In this document: positions 7,472 through 22,354 of the stretch, piece after piece
Layout: each line of letters starts with the position of its first letter
How positions within the stretch are numbered: the stretch's first letter is position 1
Origin: Methanobacteriaceae archaeon
GTDB taxonomy: Archaea; Methanobacteriota; Methanobacteria; Methanobacteriales; Methanobacteriaceae
Reading direction: 5' to 3'
Assembly: GCA_003558085.1 (NCBI GenBank)
Contig: PWMT01000010.1
Coordinates: forward strand, 1-29,553
Length of the DNA: 29,553 bases
Notes under the pieces: model-generated
Database searches by the model: none
What the model saw: the letters and a program-made list of their open reading frames with translations, nothing else
Told to the model about the DNA's origin: nothing
Program-made: the position numbers and the translations under genes

Positions 7472-8158
7472 ATGATGGAAAATTACTCAGTGGATGGATA
7501 CGATACCGTGGCAAGATGTTTGAAAGAAAAGTTGGATTTAACTAGATCCCCCGTGGCAATTAAATTTGTTTTGCAGGAAAAAGATTTACCAGATAATATT
7601 AAAGAAATAGAACTTCCCATAAGGCACTGTGAAATGGTTACCAGGGCCAGTGATGGTGAAACTTTTTATGCAATAGCCACCGATCAAGCATGTAAGGGAG
7701 GAGCAGCTGCGATTGGGGCTGATAAGACTCCTGAAAACTTAAAAACAGGTGAATTTTATTATGACTTAGGACGTTTTTCTAGTATAGGGGCAGCTAAAAG
7801 AACCATTAATGCTATACCCAAAATCAACATGGATATTCATGCCACTATTTATGCCCCTTTAGAAAAGGCCAGATTTCATCCTGATGTGATCATAGTCATA
7901 GCTAATCCAGTGCAGGCTATGAAATTATCCCAGGCCCTAATATATACTTTAGGGGGTCGTTTAGAAGCTGATTTTTCAGGAATACAGTCTTTATGTGCTG
8001 ATGCCGTGGCAGGGCCTTTTATGAGAAAAGTTCCTAATATCACACTAGGCTGCAGTGGATCCCGTAAATTTGCAGGTATTGAGGATCAAGAATTAATTGT
8101 AGGACTTAATGGAGAAAATATTGGTTGCGTGATCAATGCTTTAGATGAGATGAGCTAA
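7472..8158 (+). CDS. DUF169 family protein
   Basis: L.RSPVAIKF, RHCEMV, ACKGGA, Y.PLE...F.PDV, QSLCADA and LGC.GSRKF are characteristic of DUF169. Confidence 0.85.
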   Translation: MMENYSVDGYDTVARCLKEKLDLTRSPVAIKFVLQEKDLPDNIKEIELPIRHCEMVTRASDGETFYAIATDQACKGGAAAIGADKTPENLKTGEFYYDLGRFSSIGAAKRTINAIPKINMDIHATIYAPLEKARFHPDVIIVIANPVQAMKLSQALIYTLGGRLEADFSGIQSLCADAVAGPFMRKVPNITLGCSGSRKFAGIEDQELIVGLNGENIGCVINALDEMS

Positions 8159-8209: not shown

Positions 8210-8869
8210 TTAAAAATTATCTAAAATAAATTCATAGTCCTTATAATAATTTACATTAGTTAATTCCAGTTTACTTGCAGCAGGAAAACCATATAATTGC
8301 ACACCATCCTTATTCATTCTTCTTAGCATGGGATTGAGGTTACTATTATATGCGGGCAAGTAATTCAACAGTAATTTTTTTGAGCACGCAAAGGGCATGC
8401 CTAAACCTTCTGCTGAATCGAGATAACCAGAACTTTTCCTACCTAAAATAGAAATAATATTATGGGGACTTTCATTATTTAAAACTTTTTCAATCATTTT
8501 ATTTAAATTGTAAGTGCTGATAGTGGGCTGATCTCCTGCTAAGCATAGACATAACCAGTTACTGGCAGCATTAACTCCATTCCATAATGATTTTGCCAGA
8601 GGAACCTCAACAGGATCATTTACGACTAATTTAATACGAGAATCTTTAATTTCATCTATAGTGGGAATTATATCTTCCTTATAATGACCTACAACCACCA
8701 AGCACTCCTCTATATCCATAGTTAAAATTTTAGATAAGGTATGTTGAAGTATGTTTTTACCTTTAATCTCCAAGAGAAGCTTATTGGTAACTGGCAAGTT
8801 TCTTTTTTTTAAATCTTCCCGCATACGACGATTTTGTCCTGCTGCAGTTACCACGGCTGATACAGTCAT
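8210..8869 (-). CDS. MobA/GlmU-like nucleotidyltransferase (NTP_transf_3), last gene of the pseudomurein Mur operon
   Basis: VVTAAGQNRRM...NKLLL, LAGDQP, and C-terminal NVNY..DY (an NINT..D equivalent). Starts 11 bp after the upstream gene's stop. Confidence 0.8.
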   Translation of the reverse strand: MTVSAVVTAAGQNRRMREDLKKRNLPVTNKLLLEIKGKNILQHTLSKILTMDIEECLVVVGHYKEDIIPTIDEIKDSRIKLVVNDPVEVPLAKSLWNGVNAASNWLCLCLAGDQPTISTYNLNKMIEKVLNNESPHNIISILGRKSSGYLDSAEGLGMPFACSKKLLLNYLPAYNSNLNPMLRRMNKDGVQLYGFPAASKLELTNVNYYKDYEFILDNF

Positions 8870-8880
8870 ATTTAATCAAA

Positions 8881-10068
8881 TCAATTAGGTACTAAATGAA
8901 AGATTTGAGCATAGGTAGTGGTGCCAGCTCCTGCTCCACTGCTGGACATTATTATCTTTATGGGATATTCATTAGTGTTAAATACTTTAACATCAGTTGC
9001 GGGATTGTAACCATAGCTTACGGTATGAAATGCCCAGGTCATACCCACCGGCAGCGGACAACCAGCTGCACTTACAGCATTCCTTAAGGCCCTAGCAGGT
9101 GGACATGTGCCATGAGATGCATATCCTCCTGGTGCTTTAGGATCTCTTACACTTATAAATCCTCCAGTTTCTTTACCTGAAGCGTAATTATCTGGCGGTA
9201 CAATAGTGCCATTCCATCTTCGAGCAAATTCTCTTGCATTCGCTGCTCGGGCAGCATCACCATATTCGGGATAAGATCCTAAAGTACTGGCACTGCTACC
9301 AATTTCCACGGCAGTATAGTCATTTTTATAAGCCATAACTGGTGCGTTTGAAGTATAATTGTGCATGTATTCTTGTACAGATTCTCCAAAGTAAGCTACA
9401 ATATGAGAGGGTAGAACTGGATTTCGACCATCATTAAAATTGGAGAGATAATAATCTAATATAATTTCATCTCCTTCAGCAGCCCTTTCAAACCATTCTT
9501 TTACTTGCTCTTCTGAAACAAAATGGTTAGGGATAGTATCATTCCTTATATTATCAAAACTAAGTTTCTGCAGGGTTTCATTATTTTCTTTAATTTCCAG
9601 TTTATCTTCAACTTTATATCCATAAATATAAGGAGTTTTATAAGCCCAGATAAAGTTTCCTGGTTCCTCTACTATTAACTTATCCTCATTAGTGCTCAAC
9701 ATCCCGGGTCCTTCGTATCCACAAGAAGTACCCTTACGACAAATATTTTCATTAGTTAAATGAACGATAGGAGTTCTTATATTACCAGTTAATAAGGATT
9801 CAGTTAAATCCAGATAACGCTGGTCTTGGATATAATCTAGAACATAGTGATGGTTAAGGATTAAAGGAACTCTCCAGATTTTGCTGTTATCTACTACCTC
9901 AGTACCAGGCAATACGGTATCTCCAATAGCCAATTTTGATATTTCTGCTGGATTTTGGGCGGGATAGGCCTCTTCTAGATAAATTCCCAGGGGAATGGAA
10001 ATTATTCCTAAAAATATTAATAAAAGTGCTATTTTAAATGCTGTTTTCTTCCAGTATTTTTTTAGAAT
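8881..10068 (-). CDS. Membrane-anchored protein with C-terminal VanW-like domain
   Basis: The frame stays open upstream of the track's TTG (9933) and encodes LKKYWKKTAFKIALLLIFLGIISIPLGIY, a basic segment plus TM helix. Proposed ATT start at 10068, 6 nt after AGGAGGAG. C-terminal RAANAREFARRWNGTIVPP...HGTCPPARALRNA...TVSYG....DVKVFNTNEYPIKI parallels VanW motifs. Confidence 0.7.
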   Translation of the reverse strand: MLKKYWKKTAFKIALLLIFLGIISIPLGIYLEEAYPAQNPAEISKLAIGDTVLPGTEVVDNSKIWRVPLILNHHYVLDYIQDQRYLDLTESLLTGNIRTPIVHLTNENICRKGTSCGYEGPGMLSTNEDKLIVEEPGNFIWAYKTPYIYGYKVEDKLEIKENNETLQKLSFDNIRNDTIPNHFVSEEQVKEWFERAAEGDEIILDYYLSNFNDGRNPVLPSHIVAYFGESVQEYMHNYTSNAPVMAYKNDYTAVEIGSSASTLGSYPEYGDAARAANAREFARRWNGTIVPPDNYASGKETGGFISVRDPKAPGGYASHGTCPPARALRNAVSAAGCPLPVGMTWAFHTVSYGYNPATDVKVFNTNEYPIKIIMSSSGAGAGTTTYAQIFHLVPN

Positions 10069-13000
10069 ACTTAACTCCTCCTTCTCCTATGACTAGTATC
10101 ACATCATCTTTATCTGCAATTTGAATTGCTTCTTTTAGACCTTCTCTAACCTGCTCCTGGCTGGCACCTAATGTTCCTTTTTTTATTTTATTTTTACTTG
10201 AACGGGTTTTAACTAACTGCTTTTTAATATACTTTGAAGATTTAAGAGCAGCATGAGAAGCACTTATTATAATATCAGCTTTATTAAGAATTTTAGCGAT
10301 ATCCCGATCACCTTGTTCTCCACTTTCTGAAGATATAGTATTTATTACTATAAGTTTATTATTCTCCATTTGATTTAAAACATTCTGGATCACGGCTTTA
10401 ACACCGGCAGGATTATGAGCATAATCTAGAATGATTCTAGGTTCTTCTTTAATTATCTCAAATCGTCCATCCACGCCATTAAATTCTGCTATACCTTTTA
10501 CTATATCCTCAAATTTTACACCCAAAGCCCAAGCACCTGCAGCGGCAGATAAAGCATTATAGATATTATAGATACCCCCTATTTTTAATTTGATCCAGGC
10601 CTGCTCAGAATTTATTTGAAGCAACATACTATTTTCACTCACCTGTTGAGCAGATATATCTAGTGCTGGTTTTTTGTAACCACATTTACAATTATAATTT
10701 CCTAGATGTCCTAAGTAATGTTGTTCGTATTTAAGGGGTTTTTGGCATAAGGGACATTCACGACCTTCAGCAAAAGCATGGGCATTAGTGTTGATATGGG
10801 CTATACCATAGAATATTATGTTTTCAGGATTCTGGGAGGAGGCGAAGTTAGCTACCAAGGGATCGTCAGCATTAAGTATCAATATATCGGCAACTTCAGT
10901 TATTTCTTTTTTACACTGCACATAGCGGTTAAAGTCCTCGTCATCCTTTAAATGATCATGTGAAATGTTAGTAACCAGTCCCAGATCCACTTCACTATTT
11001 AATGCGGAATTTTTTATTTCATTCGGATTTCCAAAAGTCCCTATTTCCACTACAGCCATATCCCCTTTTAATCGGGCTTGTAAAGCTGGTATTAGCTCGG
11101 TATTACCCTGTATACTCATGAAATGTTCGGGAACTTGATAACCTGCTGTATGGAGAATATTTTTAAGTAATTTAGTTGTAGTGGTTTTACCATTAGTACC
11201 AGTTACCCCTATAACAGGTTTATTAACCTTACACATAGCCATGATCTCTTTCACTCCGATTATATTGGCCTGGCTATTTTTTTTAATTTTCTCTACTAAA
11301 TCTGTACGATCCCATAAACCCGGGGTAAGGACGATGGTATCTGCTTGGCGTAGAACTTCACTTGAATGTCCCCCCAGATCTAAATGTATACCCTCTTTAA
11401 GAAAAATCTCCTTTAAATCACAATCAGTTGCTGAATCAGAAACAGTTACCCTGGCACCATTATCTTTAAGCACCCGAGCTAAAAGACTACCTACAGTTCC
11501 ACATCCGCCTATTATAACTATATTGGTTTTATAATCCTTATAATATTTAATAGCTGTTTTAATATCATTTTTTACATTATCATAGGCGTTCACCACACCA
11601 GGACCAAGATGAAGTATGGTGTCTCCTGGGGCTGAAACTTCCAGGGCCATTAAAATACCAGTGTTTATATTTTCCACACCATAAGTCTCCACGGCACGAG
11701 CAGCAGCATTGATTTCTTCTACACTATTCCAGTTAACTACCTCAGTGGTTTCATTTTTAGCACTGGTGATGATCACATCTGCTTTTTTATCTAAAACATG
11801 GCCGATTTTAGTTTTATCTCTAATGGTGAGAGTGTCTGGATTATCTAAACTAATTATTAAGCGACCCTCCACCTCCAGACCCTCCAATAATTTTTCCATA
11901 CTTTCCGGGTTATGGGCGGCATCCATAAAAATATTAACATCCTCTACTTGATCAATTTTCTCAAAACGTCCCTTCAATCCAGAGAATGATTCTAGCTGTT
12001 CTACTAAATATTCTAAATCAAAACCGAGCACCAGTCCAATAGCAATAGAGGCCAGAGCATTTTCAATATTAATAGTTCCGGGTACTTTAAGTTGTAGGGA
12101 ACTTTTAAAGGGACCCACCCACTTACGGGAAAAATTTCCACATCTACACTTAAGCTGGTTACAGTTAGAACAGCAGGCTGTAGGCAGCCTAGTGGTTATA
12201 AGGGTGAAACTGGAACCATTAAGACCTCTTAATTCAATTTCCTTGGCATAAATATTTAAATCTGTAATAGAAGTTTGGTATACTTTATCTTCGAAAAATA
12301 TGCTTTGAGGATTATTAAGGCCATAGAAGATGATTTCTTTATCGCTGTTAGCTGACTGTTGCGCTATTATGGGGTCGTCACCATTTAAAATTAAAACCCC
12401 TTGTTCATCTATTAGTTGGGAGAGGGAGAAGTTACGCTGAATATATTGTTCATAGTTTTCAAATTCATCCAGGTGATCCGGGGTGAGATTAGTCAACACT
12501 CCACTGCACAATTCCAGTCCTTCAGCCATACGTATGGTACCATGGGGTAATTCGAATACTGCTAAATCTTTTTTTTGAGCTTTATCATTAACCACTAGCT
12601 CTACTAAACCTTCAATCACTAGAGAATCTTGAATGGAAGAAAATATAAGAGTTTCCATTTTATCTTCCAGTAAGTGGTTTATCATATTGGTAGTGGTGGT
12701 TTTACCATCAGTTCCCCCCACACCTACCATAGGTAGATGGAGTAAGGAATTTATGATCTTTCCAATATCTGCAGTGCTTATAATCTCGGTGGCTTTTTCT
12801 TCACGGACTTTTTTAATAAATTGATGCACATCTGAGTGTGGGGGTATGTTTGGGGATATAAAAATGGCATCAGCCCAAAGAAAATTTTCCAAGTTATGAT
12901 TTCCCAATTCAAAAAGTATTCCTTTTTGTTCCAATTCCCTGATCTTTTTTTGAGCTTTTTTAGGAAGGGAATCAAAATCTTGTTTATCGGTTACTCGGAC

Positions 13001-13087
13001 CTGATTATCTAAATATTTTAATAGGTTAGCAGCTGGCCTTCCAGCGTTACCTGCTCCTACGATCAGTATATTTTTACCACTTATCAA
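10034..13087 (-). CDS. Tandem double Mur ligase (MurD-like module fused to MurC-like module), pseudomurein peptide ligase
   Basis: Two complete Mur modules: GAGNAG/GTDGKTTT/NLTPDHLD/GRFE/DAAHNP and GGCGTVGS/GTNGKTTT/NISHDHL/GRFE/DYAHNP. Boundary near 11530. TTG start. Confidence 0.9.
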   Translation of the reverse strand: MISGKNILIVGAGNAGRPAANLLKYLDNQVRVTDKQDFDSLPKKAQKKIRELEQKGILFELGNHNLENFLWADAIFISPNIPPHSDVHQFIKKVREEKATEIISTADIGKIINSLLHLPMVGVGGTDGKTTTTNMINHLLEDKMETLIFSSIQDSLVIEGLVELVVNDKAQKKDLAVFELPHGTIRMAEGLELCSGVLTNLTPDHLDEFENYEQYIQRNFSLSQLIDEQGVLILNGDDPIIAQQSANSDKEIIFYGLNNPQSIFFEDKVYQTSITDLNIYAKEIELRGLNGSSFTLITTRLPTACCSNCNQLKCRCGNFSRKWVGPFKSSLQLKVPGTINIENALASIAIGLVLGFDLEYLVEQLESFSGLKGRFEKIDQVEDVNIFMDAAHNPESMEKLLEGLEVEGRLIISLDNPDTLTIRDKTKIGHVLDKKADVIITSAKNETTEVVNWNSVEEINAAARAVETYGVENINTGILMALEVSAPGDTILHLGPGVVNAYDNVKNDIKTAIKYYKDYKTNIVIIGGCGTVGSLLARVLKDNGARVTVSDSATDCDLKEIFLKEGIHLDLGGHSSEVLRQADTIVLTPGLWDRTDLVEKIKKNSQANIIGVKEIMAMCKVNKPVIGVTGTNGKTTTTKLLKNILHTAGYQVPEHFMSIQGNTELIPALQARLKGDMAVVEIGTFGNPNEIKNSALNSEVDLGLVTNISHDHLKDDEDFNRYVQCKKEITEVADILILNADDPLVANFASSQNPENIIFYGIAHINTNAHAFAEGRECPLCQKPLKYEQHYLGHLGNYNCKCGYKKPALDISAQQVSENSMLLQINSEQAWIKLKIGGIYNIYNALSAAAGAWALGVKFEDIVKGIAEFNGVDGRFEIIKEEPRIILDYAHNPAGVKAVIQNVLNQMENNKLIVINTISSESGEQGDRDIAKILNKADIIISASHAALKSSKYIKKQLVKTRSSKNKIKKGTLGASQEQVREGLKEAIQIADKDDVILVIGEGGVKYSKKILEENSI

Positions 13088-13091
13088 TCTA

Positions 13092-14303
13092 TCAACCTTT
13101 AGCCATTGCTGCCATCATTCTCTGTATTCTAATTATTTTCTGCTGACCATTCCCACCTATAAAAATATTTTTTTTAGCAAGGTATGGTCTTATAGTTTCT
13201 GGAAGCTGATCAATATCCTTTAAAATTTTTATTTCGCCTTTAAAATTAAGTTTTTTTAATTTTAACGCTGCTTGAGATGTGCTATCTTCTAATCCAGGGA
13301 ATAATATTAATATTTCTGGTTCAAATTCATTAACTACTTCTAGGATCTGGAACCGCCAACTTTCATGAGTTCGGGGAGTGCCGATGATCATCAAGGGAAA
13401 ACTATCTTCCTCTAAAACTTCCTGGAGGGCATGGACATTATCGGTTTTACCAACCACTAATCGACTCCCCTGAACATGGAATGATTTTATACGGCCCTCT
13501 GGAAGATGGAAATTTTCCAGAGAAGTTTTTATTATATCTTCATCAATATTAAGGCTTTTAGCCACGTTTTCTGCAGCACCAGCATTAATCTGATTGAATC
13601 TGCCAAATAAAGGAATTTTACAACTGCTATGTTTATAAAAGTTGCATTGTGGAATTTCAGCACCAATTTGGGCCAGATTTTCATCTAATTGATTTAAAAA
13701 TGTTTTTTTATCCTTTAAAAAATTTTTCAAGTTATGGTGGAAATTAGTAAGAGATCCATGATGATCTAGATGATCATCTCCCATGTTAGTAACTACTATT
13801 AAATCAAAATCAAAGCAGTGATTGCAGAATTCTAGAGTCATATCACATATTTCTACAATCATAACCTGGTATTCATTTTCATTAGCTTCTAGAAATAATT
13901 CAGTGTATCCTTGGAATCCACCACCAGCATTTCCCCCAATTAAAACTTTCATACCCGATTTTTCCATTATGCTCTTGAGCATCAAAGCGGTGGTGGTTTT
14001 ACCATTAGTTCCGGTAATTCCAATAGTAAATATAGATCTATGAGCATCCATTTTATCAGCTAATAATAGTTGAGAATTTTTTATTCTCTCTCCCAAGGGA
14101 ACCTTCCATAAACCAGGAGAAAGTGCTACTGCATCAGCAGAAAATATTTTTTCTTCATCATGAAATCCCAGATCTAGTTCTACTTCTTCATCTAAGTTGA
14201 TGTTTTTATCCAGATCAGAGGCATAGACTTCTTTAACCCTACTTTTTAGAGATTTGATGGCTTTTTTCCCTTCAACTCCCAGACCTACTACTGCAACTTT
14301 CAT
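13092..14303 (-). CDS. murD: MurD-like pseudomurein peptide ligase
   Basis: VAVVGLGVEG, LSPG, GITGTNGKTTT, GGNAG, TNMGDDHLD.H and EGR. SD AGGTG. Confidence 0.85.
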   Translation of the reverse strand: MKVAVVGLGVEGKKAIKSLKSRVKEVYASDLDKNINLDEEVELDLGFHDEEKIFSADAVALSPGLWKVPLGERIKNSQLLLADKMDAHRSIFTIGITGTNGKTTTALMLKSIMEKSGMKVLIGGNAGGGFQGYTELFLEANENEYQVMIVEICDMTLEFCNHCFDFDLIVVTNMGDDHLDHHGSLTNFHHNLKNFLKDKKTFLNQLDENLAQIGAEIPQCNFYKHSSCKIPLFGRFNQINAGAAENVAKSLNIDEDIIKTSLENFHLPEGRIKSFHVQGSRLVVGKTDNVHALQEVLEEDSFPLMIIGTPRTHESWRFQILEVVNEFEPEILILFPGLEDSTSQAALKLKKLNFKGEIKILKDIDQLPETIRPYLAKKNIFIGGNGQQKIIRIQRMMAAMAKG

Positions 14304-14568: not shown

Positions 14569-15573
14569 TTACGGGGGATAAGTTACTATCTTCAATTCTT
14601 TAACTGGAGTACCATCACTCCAAAAACCCATAAATCTTTGATTAGAAGTATTTCCCAGGGCATATTCCTGGTTTTCCCCATAATAAGCAGCCTCATATAA
14701 TCCATCGAAAAGTTTCCAGGTACCATAATAATCTAGGGCATTAACCATAAAACTAAAATTATCACAATGGAAGATGGCTAATGGTGCTAGATGATCAGCT
14801 ATTAAGGGTGGATTTCCATGATAATCAGAAACCATGATTACATGATCCTTATTAGTTAAGGGTATCTGAGTAGTTTCTCTAATAATTTTTTCTGCATCAG
14901 CAGAACCCACTATATCATCTTCCTCACCAGATAAGGTAAGTAAAAGGGTGTCTGCAGGTATTAAGGATAAATCTTCTAGTATCTGGCCTCTACTCTGATT
15001 TTCACTACGGGATACACCGGGTTGAACGCAGAAAATTGCTTTAGGTTGGGGTATGTCTTCCTCTAAGGCTCGGGCTGCCATGTTAATGGAAATCAACCCC
15101 CCAGCAGAGTGTCCCACCAAAGCCATATTCTCTGTTTCTGGTCTGACATGATCTCCTTCTTCCAATTGTTTTAATCCATCTTTAACTGCATAAATTGCAT
15201 TATCGGTAAAATCAGATGTATCGAAAATATTGGCTTGATAGCGGGGATAAATTACTATATTTCCTCTTTTAACCAGATGATTTATCCAGGGTCGATAAAA
15301 AATAGGATTAATAGCTGACCAGCCATGATTAAATATGATCACTGGAGCTGAAGAAGGCGAGGGTGATGCTGGCTCAAAAATCCAGTACTGTAATGCCCCA
15401 CTACCGTAAGTAGAAGAAATGATTTGGGTATGGTTATACTCTCTTCCTCCAGGACCATCAGGACTTTGCCCTGGAGGTCGGGCGTCACTTGCCAGGGAAA
15501 TCTCACAGGATAGGAACATAATTAAAAATAGGATACTAAGTAGGGATAAAGTATAGATTTTTTTAAAATTCAT
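14569..15573 (-). CDS. Secreted alpha/beta hydrolase (chlorophyllase/cutinase-like esterase)
   Basis: N-terminal signal peptide, HGW oxyanion motif, GHSAGG nucleophile elbow, candidate Asp (GEEDDIV) and His (ADHLAP). Confidence 0.8.
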   Translation of the reverse strand: MNFKKIYTLSLLSILFLIMFLSCEISLASDARPPGQSPDGPGGREYNHTQIISSTYGSGALQYWIFEPASPSPSSAPVIIFNHGWSAINPIFYRPWINHLVKRGNIVIYPRYQANIFDTSDFTDNAIYAVKDGLKQLEEGDHVRPETENMALVGHSAGGLISINMAARALEEDIPQPKAIFCVQPGVSRSENQSRGQILEDLSLIPADTLLLTLSGEEDDIVGSADAEKIIRETTQIPLTNKDHVIMVSDYHGNPPLIADHLAPLAIFHCDNFSFMVNALDYYGTWKLFDGLYEAAYYGENQEYALGNTSNQRFMGFWSDGTPVKELKIVTYPP

Positions 15574-19588: not shown

Positions 19589-22354
19589 TTAGCTTGTTAC
19601 TTTCAAATCAGAAATAACCTTATCCACAATAACCTGGGATTCGCCTTCCTCTTTTTTTACTTTAATGATATTATCAGCTGCTTCCTCCAGATTCAAATCA
19701 TGGCTGACGATAATCATCTGGGGTAAGATGGACATTTTCTTTAAAATATCGATTAATTCCTGCCGCCGGTAATCATCCAAGTGAATAGTGGGTTCATCCA
19801 ACATGATAAGCTCTAATTTACCCCCAGAAAGTACCTTGGTAATACCTAAACGCATGGCCAATGCCACCGCAATCTTTTCTCCGCCACTAATCATATCTAG
19901 ACTGGTTTTACCACCAGGACCATATATTTCCACATTGTAGTCCTCATCTATGGAAATGTCTGAATATTCAAAGTTAAACTGATCAAAGAAAGCTCTGCTA
20001 TGCTGTTCAATCAGGGGACGGGAAATATTTCTAAGATCCTTCTGCACTCCATCTTTACCATAAAGGTCACGAATATAATTCAACAGTTTGAGGAAATCTT
20101 CCAGGTCAAACATTTCACTTTCATATTTCTTCAGGGACTGCAATTCCTTTTCAATATCCCTAATAGAACGGTTTATTACATTTAAGCTTCCTTCATTCTC
20201 TTTTTTCTGGCCATTACAATTTAGAAAAGTTTTATTTTTATTATCAAACTCTTCTATTAACTGTTGGTGATAGGATTTATCATAATAGAGTTCTTCCAAT
20301 TTATTCTCTAATGAATATATGTGGTTATCTGTCTTGTGGATTTCTTCTTGGTTTTCATCTAATTTCTGGATAAGTGAACTTTTCTGAGTGATTATACCTT
20401 GTAGTTTATTTAACTCTGCTTTCAGATTTTCTAGCTCCTGGAGATCTGCTTCGATTTTTTCCAGGTTAACCTGCGGACCATCATCTATTATTTTTAGATA
20501 TTCAGGCGCTGCTTGGGGAACTAATTTATCTATTTTCAAGTGGCAATTTTTAATTTCCTCTAAAAGATAATTTAATCTAGATTTCATTGCTTCAGGATCT
20601 TCAAATGTTTCCAGGGCATGCTTTGCTTTCAAGTATTTCTCATTTTTATCCTTAATTTCTTTTAATCTACTCTTTTTTGAGTGAATATTGGATTCTATCT
20701 CATCCAATTTAAAGGACTTGATTTTTAATTTTTCCCCTTCTATTTCACATTTTTCCAGTTCCTGCTGTTGTTTCGTTAGGGTTTTGATTTTTTCCTGCAA
20801 GATATCTAATTTAATTTTTTGAAGAGATCGCTCTTTTTGATTTAAGGCTTTTTTTTGTTTACTTAATTGTTTTAAAGTATCCTTTAAACTTTTTATTCTT
20901 TCTTTATTCATTGCAATTTCATGGGAATACTTATTCTCCAGGGATTCCTTTTTTGTTTTATCAATGGTAGATTCGCATACCGGGCACTTGTCTTCAACCT
21001 GTGTCAATTCCTCTAAAGGTTTCTTCAGTTTTTGGTTCTGGTCTTTTAGTGAAGAAATTTCTGAATTTAAGTTATTAATCTCCTCATCTAAAAATTCCAT
21101 CTTTTTTAGGGTATCCTTGCTCACTTTTTTAAACTGTTCTTGGATTTCGGCTAGAGAATCTAAGCTTGTATCCATTATTTGATTATATTCTGTAATTTTT
21201 GCTTCAATTTCCTGGTTTAGAACCTGAATATTATTTTTCAACTCAGTTTTCCTAGCTTCCACACTTTTAATAAGTGCTCTAGTACCCTCAAATTCTAATT
21301 TATCATCCAATAAGATCTGAATTTTCTTATCAATATCTAAATATTCCTTATGATATATTTGGTATTGTCTTAGAACATCATTATAGGATTGGATCTTCTT
21401 TAAATTCTGACTAAGTTGTTCTTCTTCTCTTTTAAAATCTTTTAAATTTAAACCCAGAGAATGTAAGGGGATTAAAAAATTTAGGGAGTCAATAACTTGT
21501 TTTAATTCAGCTGCTTTAATTTCCTTCTTCTTTAGGTTCTCTAAGTCGAAAAGTAAAATTTCCTGATCCTTTTTTAGTTTAGAGAGAAAATCATGGTGGG
21601 ATTTTATTTGTGAGGAGATATCATGGAAGGCTATTTTTTTTTCATCCATCTTATCTTTCTCATTTTTTATTTGCTTTAAATCTTCTAAGATTCCCTGGAT
21701 ATTCTCCTCTATCTCACTTATTTTTAATTCAATACTGGACTTTTATGCTTTTTTAGACTTTAATTCATCCTGCCAGTGTTTTTTAGATTCTAATACTCCT
21801 CTTAAATGTTCTTTTTTTTCTCTATAATGACTTATAAGTGGTCCCATATTTTTCCAGGCTGCTTCCAGGGATTCAATTCCAAGTAATTTGCCCATGAATT
21901 TTTTTTTCTCGCCAGGGGTTTTATCAATCAAATCCGCTATTTCACCCTGTTTCACATAGACCGCATTTAGGAATAGTTTACTATCCATCTCCAGTAGTTT
22001 CTCAATTTCCAGAGTCACTGATTTATCCCCTGCGAGGATCTGATGATAACCAGCACCATCCTTTAATTCTAAAAAAGCTCTTGATAATTTATTATTTCTC
22101 TTGCGGGTGACCCGGTAAGTATTACTGTTAGCAATGAATTCCAGAACCACCTTCATCTTTTCCTCTCCACATTTAACTAGTTTTTGCAGACTCCTAGGTG
22201 AATAATCCTTGAATAGAGCAAAGCTAACCGCTTCCAGTATACTGGTTTTACCTGCTCCATTTTCGCCCATTATAATCGATATGCCTGCAGGAAAATCTAT
22301 ATTGTTTGAGGAGTGCGATTTGAAGTTCTCCATTTTCAGATTTTTAATGATCAT
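19589..22354 (-). CDS. rad50: Rad50 ATPase, interrupted by one in-frame TAA (21743-21745)
   Basis: Walker A GENGAGKTS, Q-loop YVKQGEI, coiled coil, zinc hook CPVC, signature SGGE, Walker B LIMLDEP. The two track ORFs share one frame, with 31 sense codons between the TAA and ATG 21649. Start ATG 22354 behind GAGG. Confidence 0.92.

Follow-up and report, generated by a model that had tools for sequence, protein, structure and literature searches.

PmurA, encoded in the pseudomurein gene cluster of Methanobacteriaceae, carries a predicted VanW-type domain and is a candidate cell-wall enzyme

We describe the gene for PmurA in a stretch of DNA of 29,553 nucleotides (nt) from a Methanobacteriaceae archaeon (contig PWMT01000010.1, assembly GCA_003558085.1, positions 1 to 29,553); this whole stretch is referred to below as the window. 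PmurA is encoded among the peptide ligases of pseudomurein synthesis, and profile comparison and structure prediction allow us to classify its C-terminal domain as a divergent member of the VanW superfamily, with an invariant Cys at the position of the VanW nucleophile. The protein is probably, on balance, a Cys-dependent enzyme that acts on the pseudomurein peptide outside the membrane; that it is the transpeptidase of the pseudomurein wall is a narrower proposal, which we put forward tentatively. The family has already been named, without an established function, and what is added here is the VanW homology and the functional reading. A literature search for VanW together with pseudomurein (as whole words) found no paper, and within the searchable literature the link appears to be new.

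Family and gene context

The 395-residue translation matches the NCBIfam model NF053640 ('Mfer335 family protein PmurA') with 499.4 bits against a cut-off of 400 (E = 6e-150), and the match spans the full model (positions 1–378). A preliminary description of this DNA, made from the letters alone, had placed the gene within a Mur operon, overlapping a double Mur ligase and close to a nucleotidyltransferase, and this placement is correct: read from the ATT at 10068, PmurA overlaps the end of the pMurD1–pMurC gene by 35 nt and is followed after 11 nt by PmurB. The gene thus lies between a pMurC-type ligase and PmurB, and the order is identical in a genome of the same genus (L013). As a member of the PmurA/Mfer335 family (NF053640; OG0001147 by position) the window gene has the same neighbours as its relatives, and only our reading of it differs.

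Relationship to VanW proteins

The preliminary description had noted VanW-like blocks, in the right order, in the C-terminal part of the protein. An alignment of 80 PmurA family members, with residues 262–395 as the query for the C-terminal domain, was compared using hhalign with a VanW set consisting of four proteins from viral contigs, found with a degenerate pattern and matching Pfam VanW with E values of 1e-43 to 2e-52, and 120 proteins added by homologue search. The C-terminal domain aligned with the VanW domain with a probability of 96.3 (E = 1.5e-9, score 58.6, 112 columns). Taking the match columns from the first sequence gave a probability of 96.4 (E = 1.1e-9, 117 columns), and the whole-protein alignments gave 95.4 (E = 1.9e-8, 177 columns). 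The controls scored far lower than the real comparison (58.6): the reversed VanW alignment scored 11.9, the best of 60 column shuffles 19.4, the best of 60 shuffles of eight-column blocks 30.4 and the N-terminal domain of PmurA against VanW 11.4. The blocks are therefore upheld as VanW-like. A weaker similarity reaches back as far as residue 203 (nt 9462).

Pfam VanW (PF04294) is the commonest sub-threshold family in the PmurA set, being found in 15 of the 80 members (E ≤ 10, best 0.0013) and in 5 of 29 in an earlier set. The hits are collinear with the model: one member matches model positions 2–129, two match the first 35 positions and two the last 30. When hmmsearch was run without filters in both directions, the VanW hidden Markov model matched all 80 PmurA proteins and the PmurA model matched 122 of the 124 VanW proteins, at low scores (best E ∼6e-6, with small sets). 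A protein-language-model search with one homologue (P0024) returned VanW as the first named family after its own clusters (0.89; 177 of 256 features), which is a lead only. When 1.84 billion proteins were searched with a profile of the family, 68 hits were obtained at E ≤ 1e-3, with no full-length VanW-type protein among them; the five full-length hits that were scanned against Pfam comprise two chance hits to repeat proteins (P0145, PPC repeats; P0148, NHL repeats) and three proteins without a family, and the majority of the remaining hits are short and match only a section of the profile. As judged from these comparisons, the relationship is a remote one that is visible only to profile–profile methods.

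The N-terminal extracytoplasmic domain belongs to no known family. A language-model search gave PG_binding_4 for it (0.87, with 98 of 256 features in common), again as a lead only, and hhalign gave a probability of 0.7. Weak hits to Peptidase_S10 in 7 of the 80 members fall in the central, non-catalytic part of that model and were treated as chance. A search at E ≤ 1e-5 for fused PmurA forms of 693–2000 residues found none, which is weak evidence.

Predicted structure

The AlphaFold2 model of the window protein has a mean predicted local distance difference test (pLDDT) score of 92.1 and a predicted template-modelling score of 0.82, and consists of a helix (residues 9–34), a β-rich domain and a C-terminal α+β domain. 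It was compared with the model of a short VanW protein (pLDDT 88.6). Each of the eight secondary-structure elements in the C-terminal domain of PmurA has a counterpart in the VanW model, in identical order (E, strand; H, helix; PmurA then VanW): E251–262 and E56–65, H271–285 and H71–84, E288–290 and E87–89, E295–297 and E94–96, H322–334 and H129–140, E361–363 and E177–180, E370–377 and E185–192, and E384–394 and E196–204. Three additional VanW elements (H97–101, the hairpin 112–125 and E146–150) match gaps in the hhalign alignment. Helix 322–334 begins with Cys322, and the VanW Cys is the second residue of the matching helix.

The two models were also compared indirectly, through their neighbours in the PDB. 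Among the 50 nearest chains for each model, 30 are common to PmurA and VanW, including the top two; these 30 are drawn from the 39 PmurA neighbours that lie on the C-terminal domain. A clear relative in the PDB was found for neither model: Foldseek searches of the PmurA model against the PDB and BFVD gave no match at E ≤ 1e-3, and a sequence search of the PDB with the PmurA family profile found nothing (best E = 0.87).

Membrane anchor and start codon

A basic N-terminus and a transmembrane (TM) anchor with the rest of the protein facing outwards had been proposed from the sequence, and our analysis agrees. Residues 1–12 are basic, with five K/R and no D/E in the N-terminal flank, and the hydrophobic helix comes next. 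Averaged over the 31 of 80 family members whose N-terminus is complete, the 15 residues preceding the hydrophobic segment contain 2.6 K/R and 0.45 D/E, and the 15 residues past it contain 0.65 K/R and 2.2 D/E. By the positive-inside rule these flank charges put the bulk of PmurA outside the cell, and PmurA is predicted to be an N-in, C-out (type II) membrane-anchored protein. A membrane insertion domain near the N-terminus of Mfer335 relatives was noted by Subedi et al. 2021 (PMC10117817).

A strong hydrophobic segment is absent in 27 of the 80 predicted proteins, most of which start inside or past the segment (e.g. 'MYPLG'). In all 14 other genomes inspected, the frame stays open upstream and encodes a hydrophobic stretch, and the predictions that lack a TM segment are probably mis-called starts. 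Such starts may explain an entry in a 2025 pangenome paper, in which OG0001147, a group located between a Mur ligase and a MobA-like transferase, is recorded as uncharacterised, lacking a signal peptide and with a count of 0 TM segments (PMC11915815); from its cluster position we infer that OG0001147 is PmurA. In automated surveys they would also let the family pass as cytoplasmic.

The window gene shows how the anchor can be missed. The canonical list of open reading frames (ORFs) contains only 8881–9933, a 350-residue version that begins at a TTG, omits the upstream basic stretch and the hydrophobic helix and has no TM segment. The frame itself is open from 10086 to the stop codon (minus strand), directly 3′ of a TAG, and there is no ATG, GTG or TTG ahead of the TM segment. 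In two genomes of the same genus (L013 and L014) PmurA begins TTG GAG AAG GAG GAG; in the window this TTG has become the TAG, a change that is silent in the overlapping pMurC frame and is found unchanged in contigs of three runs from at least two studies, including that of a ∼92%-identical strain. The start at 10068 given in the preliminary description is supported by a GGAGG that precedes it by 8 nt, with the correction that the codon is an ATT, outside the canonical list. The GGAGG-N8-ATT layout recurs in two other genera (L005 and L007), in L007 without an overlapping upstream gene. ATT 10068 is likely to be the start, being the best candidate in the sequence. A run of seven A residues in the overlap would provide an alternative by a +1 frameshift joining pMurC to PmurA, which we regard as unlikely.

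The loss of the ancestral TTG and the want of any other ATG, GTG or TTG before the TM segment could also mean that PmurA is decaying in this genome, with either a truncated, TM-less product made from TTG 9933 or no product at all. Against this, the frame is intact, and eight of the nine differences in residues 1–46 between the window and the ∼92%-identical strain are synonymous in the PmurA frame, while TTG 9933 is TTA in that strain. Over the TM part (34 codons), comparison with a same-genus genome gives 15 synonymous and 11 non-synonymous codon changes. These changes indicate that the TM-containing segment is translated, and with the same start layout in two other genera they make decay very improbable. 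One metatranscriptome contig covers 9820–9990, which does not establish transcription. A scan for promoters and terminators, of a kind ill-suited to archaea, gave counts no higher than expected from shuffled sequence.

Putative active site

The Cys of the VanW motif had been described as retained, and Cys322 (codon 9105–9103) does align with the invariant VanW Cys. It is one of nine residues, D213, R215, R274, N277, H319, C322, R326, R329 and N364, that are invariant in all 80 members and in all of 12 divergent representatives; D309 is invariant in the 80 members and is E or Q in two of the 12. Eight positions hold the same residue in PmurA and VanW with a conservation of at least 0.9 in each: R274, N277, P292, G320, C322, L328, N364 and P369. 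The blocks R..N, NGT..P and N..YPI are common to both families, and the overall layout is also alike: in the VanW L,D-transpeptidases (LDTs; PF04294) Ldt4 and Ldt5 of Clostridioides difficile, as in PmurA, an N-terminal membrane anchor is followed by an extracytoplasmic spacer domain and then by the catalytic domain. PmurA differs from these VanW LDTs in its N-terminal domain, which is not detectably PG_binding_4, in its archaeal host and in the all-L peptide of the wall.

Around the Cys the two families differ. Compared with the VanW consensus, PmurA has His319 in place of the middle Gly of GGGxC, Pro323 in place of Gln and Arg329 in place of Tyr, and the set His319, Pro323, Arg326 and Arg329 is invariant in PmurA. 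Two His residues had been suggested as the general base; that of the SHGxC motif (His319) is invariant, but that of AFHTV is not conserved. His319 and Cys322 form a putative catalytic dyad. YkuD-type LDTs (PF03734) likewise have a Cys nucleophile with a His nearby, and their motif, S-H-G-C, is close to the S-H-G-x-C of PmurA. The YkuD fold is a different one, and the VanW fold is described as unlike any solved structure (PMC11348318).

Distribution

The genomes sampled cover the four families of this class, with Methanopyrales outside them, and 14 control genomes include four archaea without pseudomurein. The PmurA family model matches 193 of 201 genomes of the lineage (117 of 121 in an earlier sample) and none of the 14 controls. 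With the lineage samples limited to four families, absence from other archaea rests on these controls and on the literature, in which relatives of Mfer335 are said to be confined to pseudomurein methanogens (Subedi et al. 2021; PMC10117817). Three of the genomes without a match are single cases with completeness of 92–94%; the others belong to one genus, discussed below. Separately, two genomes (G011:C5:185028-186154 and G065:C1:32398-33533) have the match broken into two parts that lie in different frames, which may reflect frameshifts or assembly errors.

Proposed function and alternatives

The passages on pseudomurein cross-linking in three papers postulate only transglutaminases and identify no enzyme (PMC10117817, PMC11915815, PMC2812497), in keeping with what the preliminary description had stated. 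According to the legend to Fig. S6 of Leahy et al. 2010, cross-linking requires that a terminal residue be removed and a Glu-to-Lys link formed, 'probably' by transglutaminases (PMC2812497); Subedi et al. 2021 found no transpeptidase orthologues and repeated the transglutaminase proposal (PMC10117817). As the preliminary description also stated, VanW proteins of C. difficile are Cys-dependent L,D-transpeptidases, for which Bollinger et al. 2024 proposed a Cys-His-Asp triad (PMC11348318).

From the remote homology, the Cys, the topology, the operon and the distribution we consider it somewhat better than an even case that PmurA is a Cys-dependent enzyme working on the pseudomurein peptide outside the membrane. 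In this mechanism the stem peptide would be processed by the exported C-terminal domain, with a thioacyl intermediate formed on Cys322. Cys322 would attack the bond to the terminal residue of the donor peptide and release that residue, and the acyl group would then pass either to the amino group of a Glu on a neighbouring peptide, giving a cross-link, or to water, giving trimming. His319, three residues before the Cys, would serve as general base in place of the absent VanW His/Asp pair. We infer the substrate and the acyl-enzyme chemistry, as well as whether the reaction is that of a transpeptidase or of a carboxypeptidase. The more specific proposal, that PmurA is the pseudomurein transpeptidase, an offshoot of the VanW L,D-transpeptidases rebuilt on a His319–Cys322 dyad that cleaves an L–L bond and forms the Glu–Lys cross-link, is one that we hold only tentatively, as a serious possibility.

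Several observations weigh against this reading of PmurA. A Pfam scan of the window protein gave no VanW match at E ≤ 10, only DUF5683 at 0.043, and none of 37 members scanned singly reaches the VanW gathering cut-off (best 18.1 against 27 bits). A sequence search of the PDB found no solved VanW chain, so that the structural comparison is made only through common neighbours. The catalytic H90 and D102 of VanW (domain numbering) and the invariant Arg before the His are unaligned, falling with the β-hairpin in gaps of PmurA; as read from the alignment, the nucleophile is kept, the rest of the proposed VanW triad is not, and the putative catalytic machinery differs. His348 of the window protein is not conserved. 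Among the VanW proteins themselves, LDT activity was found in only three of seven further proteins tested (PMC11348318). Finally, one genus (g5, labelled Methanobrevibacter sp. and including strain 87.7) has PmurA in none of its five genomes, and the family profile at E ≤ 1 finds there only a chance match in UvrC. The genus retains pMurC and PmurB; pMurC is directly followed by PmurB with a gap of ∼130–146 bp (L019 1450–3627 and L025 1274–3690, including a contig titled Methanobrevibacter sp. 87.7). PmurA is thus near-universal in the lineage, but is dispensable or replaced in one genus, and it cannot be the sole cross-linker everywhere. Redundancy is usual among bacterial L,D-transpeptidases (PMC11348318), and YkuD (PF03734) was found in none of five genomes (this one and four of g5).

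The loss of the VanW His/Asp pair and the existence of a genus that lives without PmurA would be in keeping with an alternative in which PmurA is a VanW-fold hydrolase, either a carboxypeptidase or an endopeptidase, or else binds the wall or serves as a scaffold without catalysis, while exported transglutaminase-like proteins make the cross-links. In Ldt4 and Ldt5 of C. difficile, carboxypeptidase activity survived the Cys-to-Ala mutation, and the four of seven other VanW proteins without LDT activity would fit this explanation too (PMC11348318). Transglutaminases have been named the best candidate for cross-linking (PMC11915815), and proteins with a Transglut_core domain are present, with two matches in this genome and five in each of the g5 genomes. 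Such proteins are also found in three control archaea without pseudomurein and are thus not specific to pseudomurein walls; the family (PF01841) is absent from the Pfam table of the window protein and from the 25 commonest families of the 80 members (E ≤ 10). Transglutaminase chemistry uses the amide of Gln, and no terminal residue is removed. That a Cys and a His are invariant in an exported protein of strict anaerobes points to catalysis rather than binding. We regard this alternative as a real possibility, though less likely than not.

A role in the cytoplasm has been proposed in print. There PmurA would be an ATP-using enzyme, a glutamate kinase or NTPase, that makes a UDP-Glu-γ-phosphate starter for the stem peptide, in agreement with the clustering of its gene with PmurB and the ligases and with the listing of Mfer335 as a possible phosphoryl-transfer enzyme by Subedi et al. 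2021 (PMC10117817). According to a 2026 paper, PMurA carries a conserved NTPase domain, a statement based on a supplementary table, and the recombinant protein turned ATP into ADP and AMP (PMC12996149, sections 3.1 and 3.6), which would fit a cytoplasmic role and counts against the extracellular mechanism proposed above; the expected Glu-phosphate product was, by the same account, not detected. Neither Pfam nor NCBIfam gives an NTPase or kinase family for the window protein, nor is one among the 25 commonest families of the 80 members, and the domain is VanW-like. The N-in signal anchor puts most of the protein outside the cell, and an exported domain argues against cytoplasmic activation of glutamate. 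The kinase explanation is, in our judgement, unlikely, and clearly so.

Other features of the window

The features discussed are collected in Table 1. The pMurD1–pMurC fusion is also present in the same-genus genome L013 (1027 residues). Just beyond PmurB, and divergent from it, is a gene for a DUF169 (COG2043) protein (7472–8158, plus strand) without an NCBIfam match. Upstream of pMurD2, an ORF of 334 residues (14569–15573, minus strand) has no NCBIfam match either, and may or may not belong to the cluster. For an ORF of 686 residues (19589–21649, minus strand), the match to Rad50 models is confined to their C-terminal two thirds and lies far under the cut-offs; the ORF may encode a short Rad50/SMC-like ATPase or have a mis-called start. 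Public sequencing runs that contain positions 9700–10400 are labelled as salt-lake, soda-lake and alkali-sediment metagenomes, and the second, ∼92%-identical strain co-occurs in one of the runs.

Table 1. Positions of PmurA, its parts and its neighbours in the window
Feature	Position	Strand	Remarks
PmurA/Mfer335-family gene	8881..10068	-	395 codons if the start is ATT 10068–10066; stop 8883–8881
VanW-like catalytic domain, putative (residues 270–391)	8896..9261	-	hhalign and controls, secondary structure, common PDB neighbours
Cys322 codon, putative nucleophile	9103..9105	-	Aligns with the invariant VanW Cys; first residue of helix 322–334
His319 codon	9112..9114	-	Invariant; at the middle-Gly position of VanW GGGxC
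N-terminal extracytoplasmic domain (∼residues 41–254)	9307..9948	-	β-rich, no known family
Signal-anchor TM helix (residues 9–34)	9967..10044	-	AlphaFold2 helix 9–34; basic N-terminal flank, acidic C-terminal flank
Seven-A run in the pMurC/PmurA overlap	10057..10063	-	A +1 shift would join pMurC to PmurA
GGAGG (10081–10077), 8-nt spacer, ATT (10068–10066)	10066..10081	-	Likely non-canonical start
TAG in place of the TTG start codon of L013 and L014	10087..10089	-	
PmurB nucleotidyltransferase	8210..8869	-	NCBIfam NF053639, 297.1 bits against a cut-off of 260; downstream neighbour
pMurD1–pMurC fused peptide ligase	10034..13087	-	1017 residues; NCBIfam pMurC 668.6 bits, pMurD1 484.6 bits; upstream neighbour
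pMurD2 peptide ligase	13092..14303	-	NCBIfam NF053647, 571.6 bits; upstream of pMurD1–pMurC

Implications

An exported VanW-superfamily domain with an invariant Cys gives PmurA a concrete mechanism that can be tested, and the lineage that lacks the protein provides a natural comparison. The predicted VanW placement would mean that murein and pseudomurein synthesis have a common ancestry outside the membrane as well. If PmurA is the transpeptidase, the extracellular cross-linking of pseudomurein and murein synthesis would be of common descent, as already holds for the cytoplasmic Mur ligases, and the protein would be a methanogen-specific drug target. As the family is restricted to pseudomurein methanogens, among them the main methane producers of the rumen and the gut, an inhibitor directed at the Cys could be selective.

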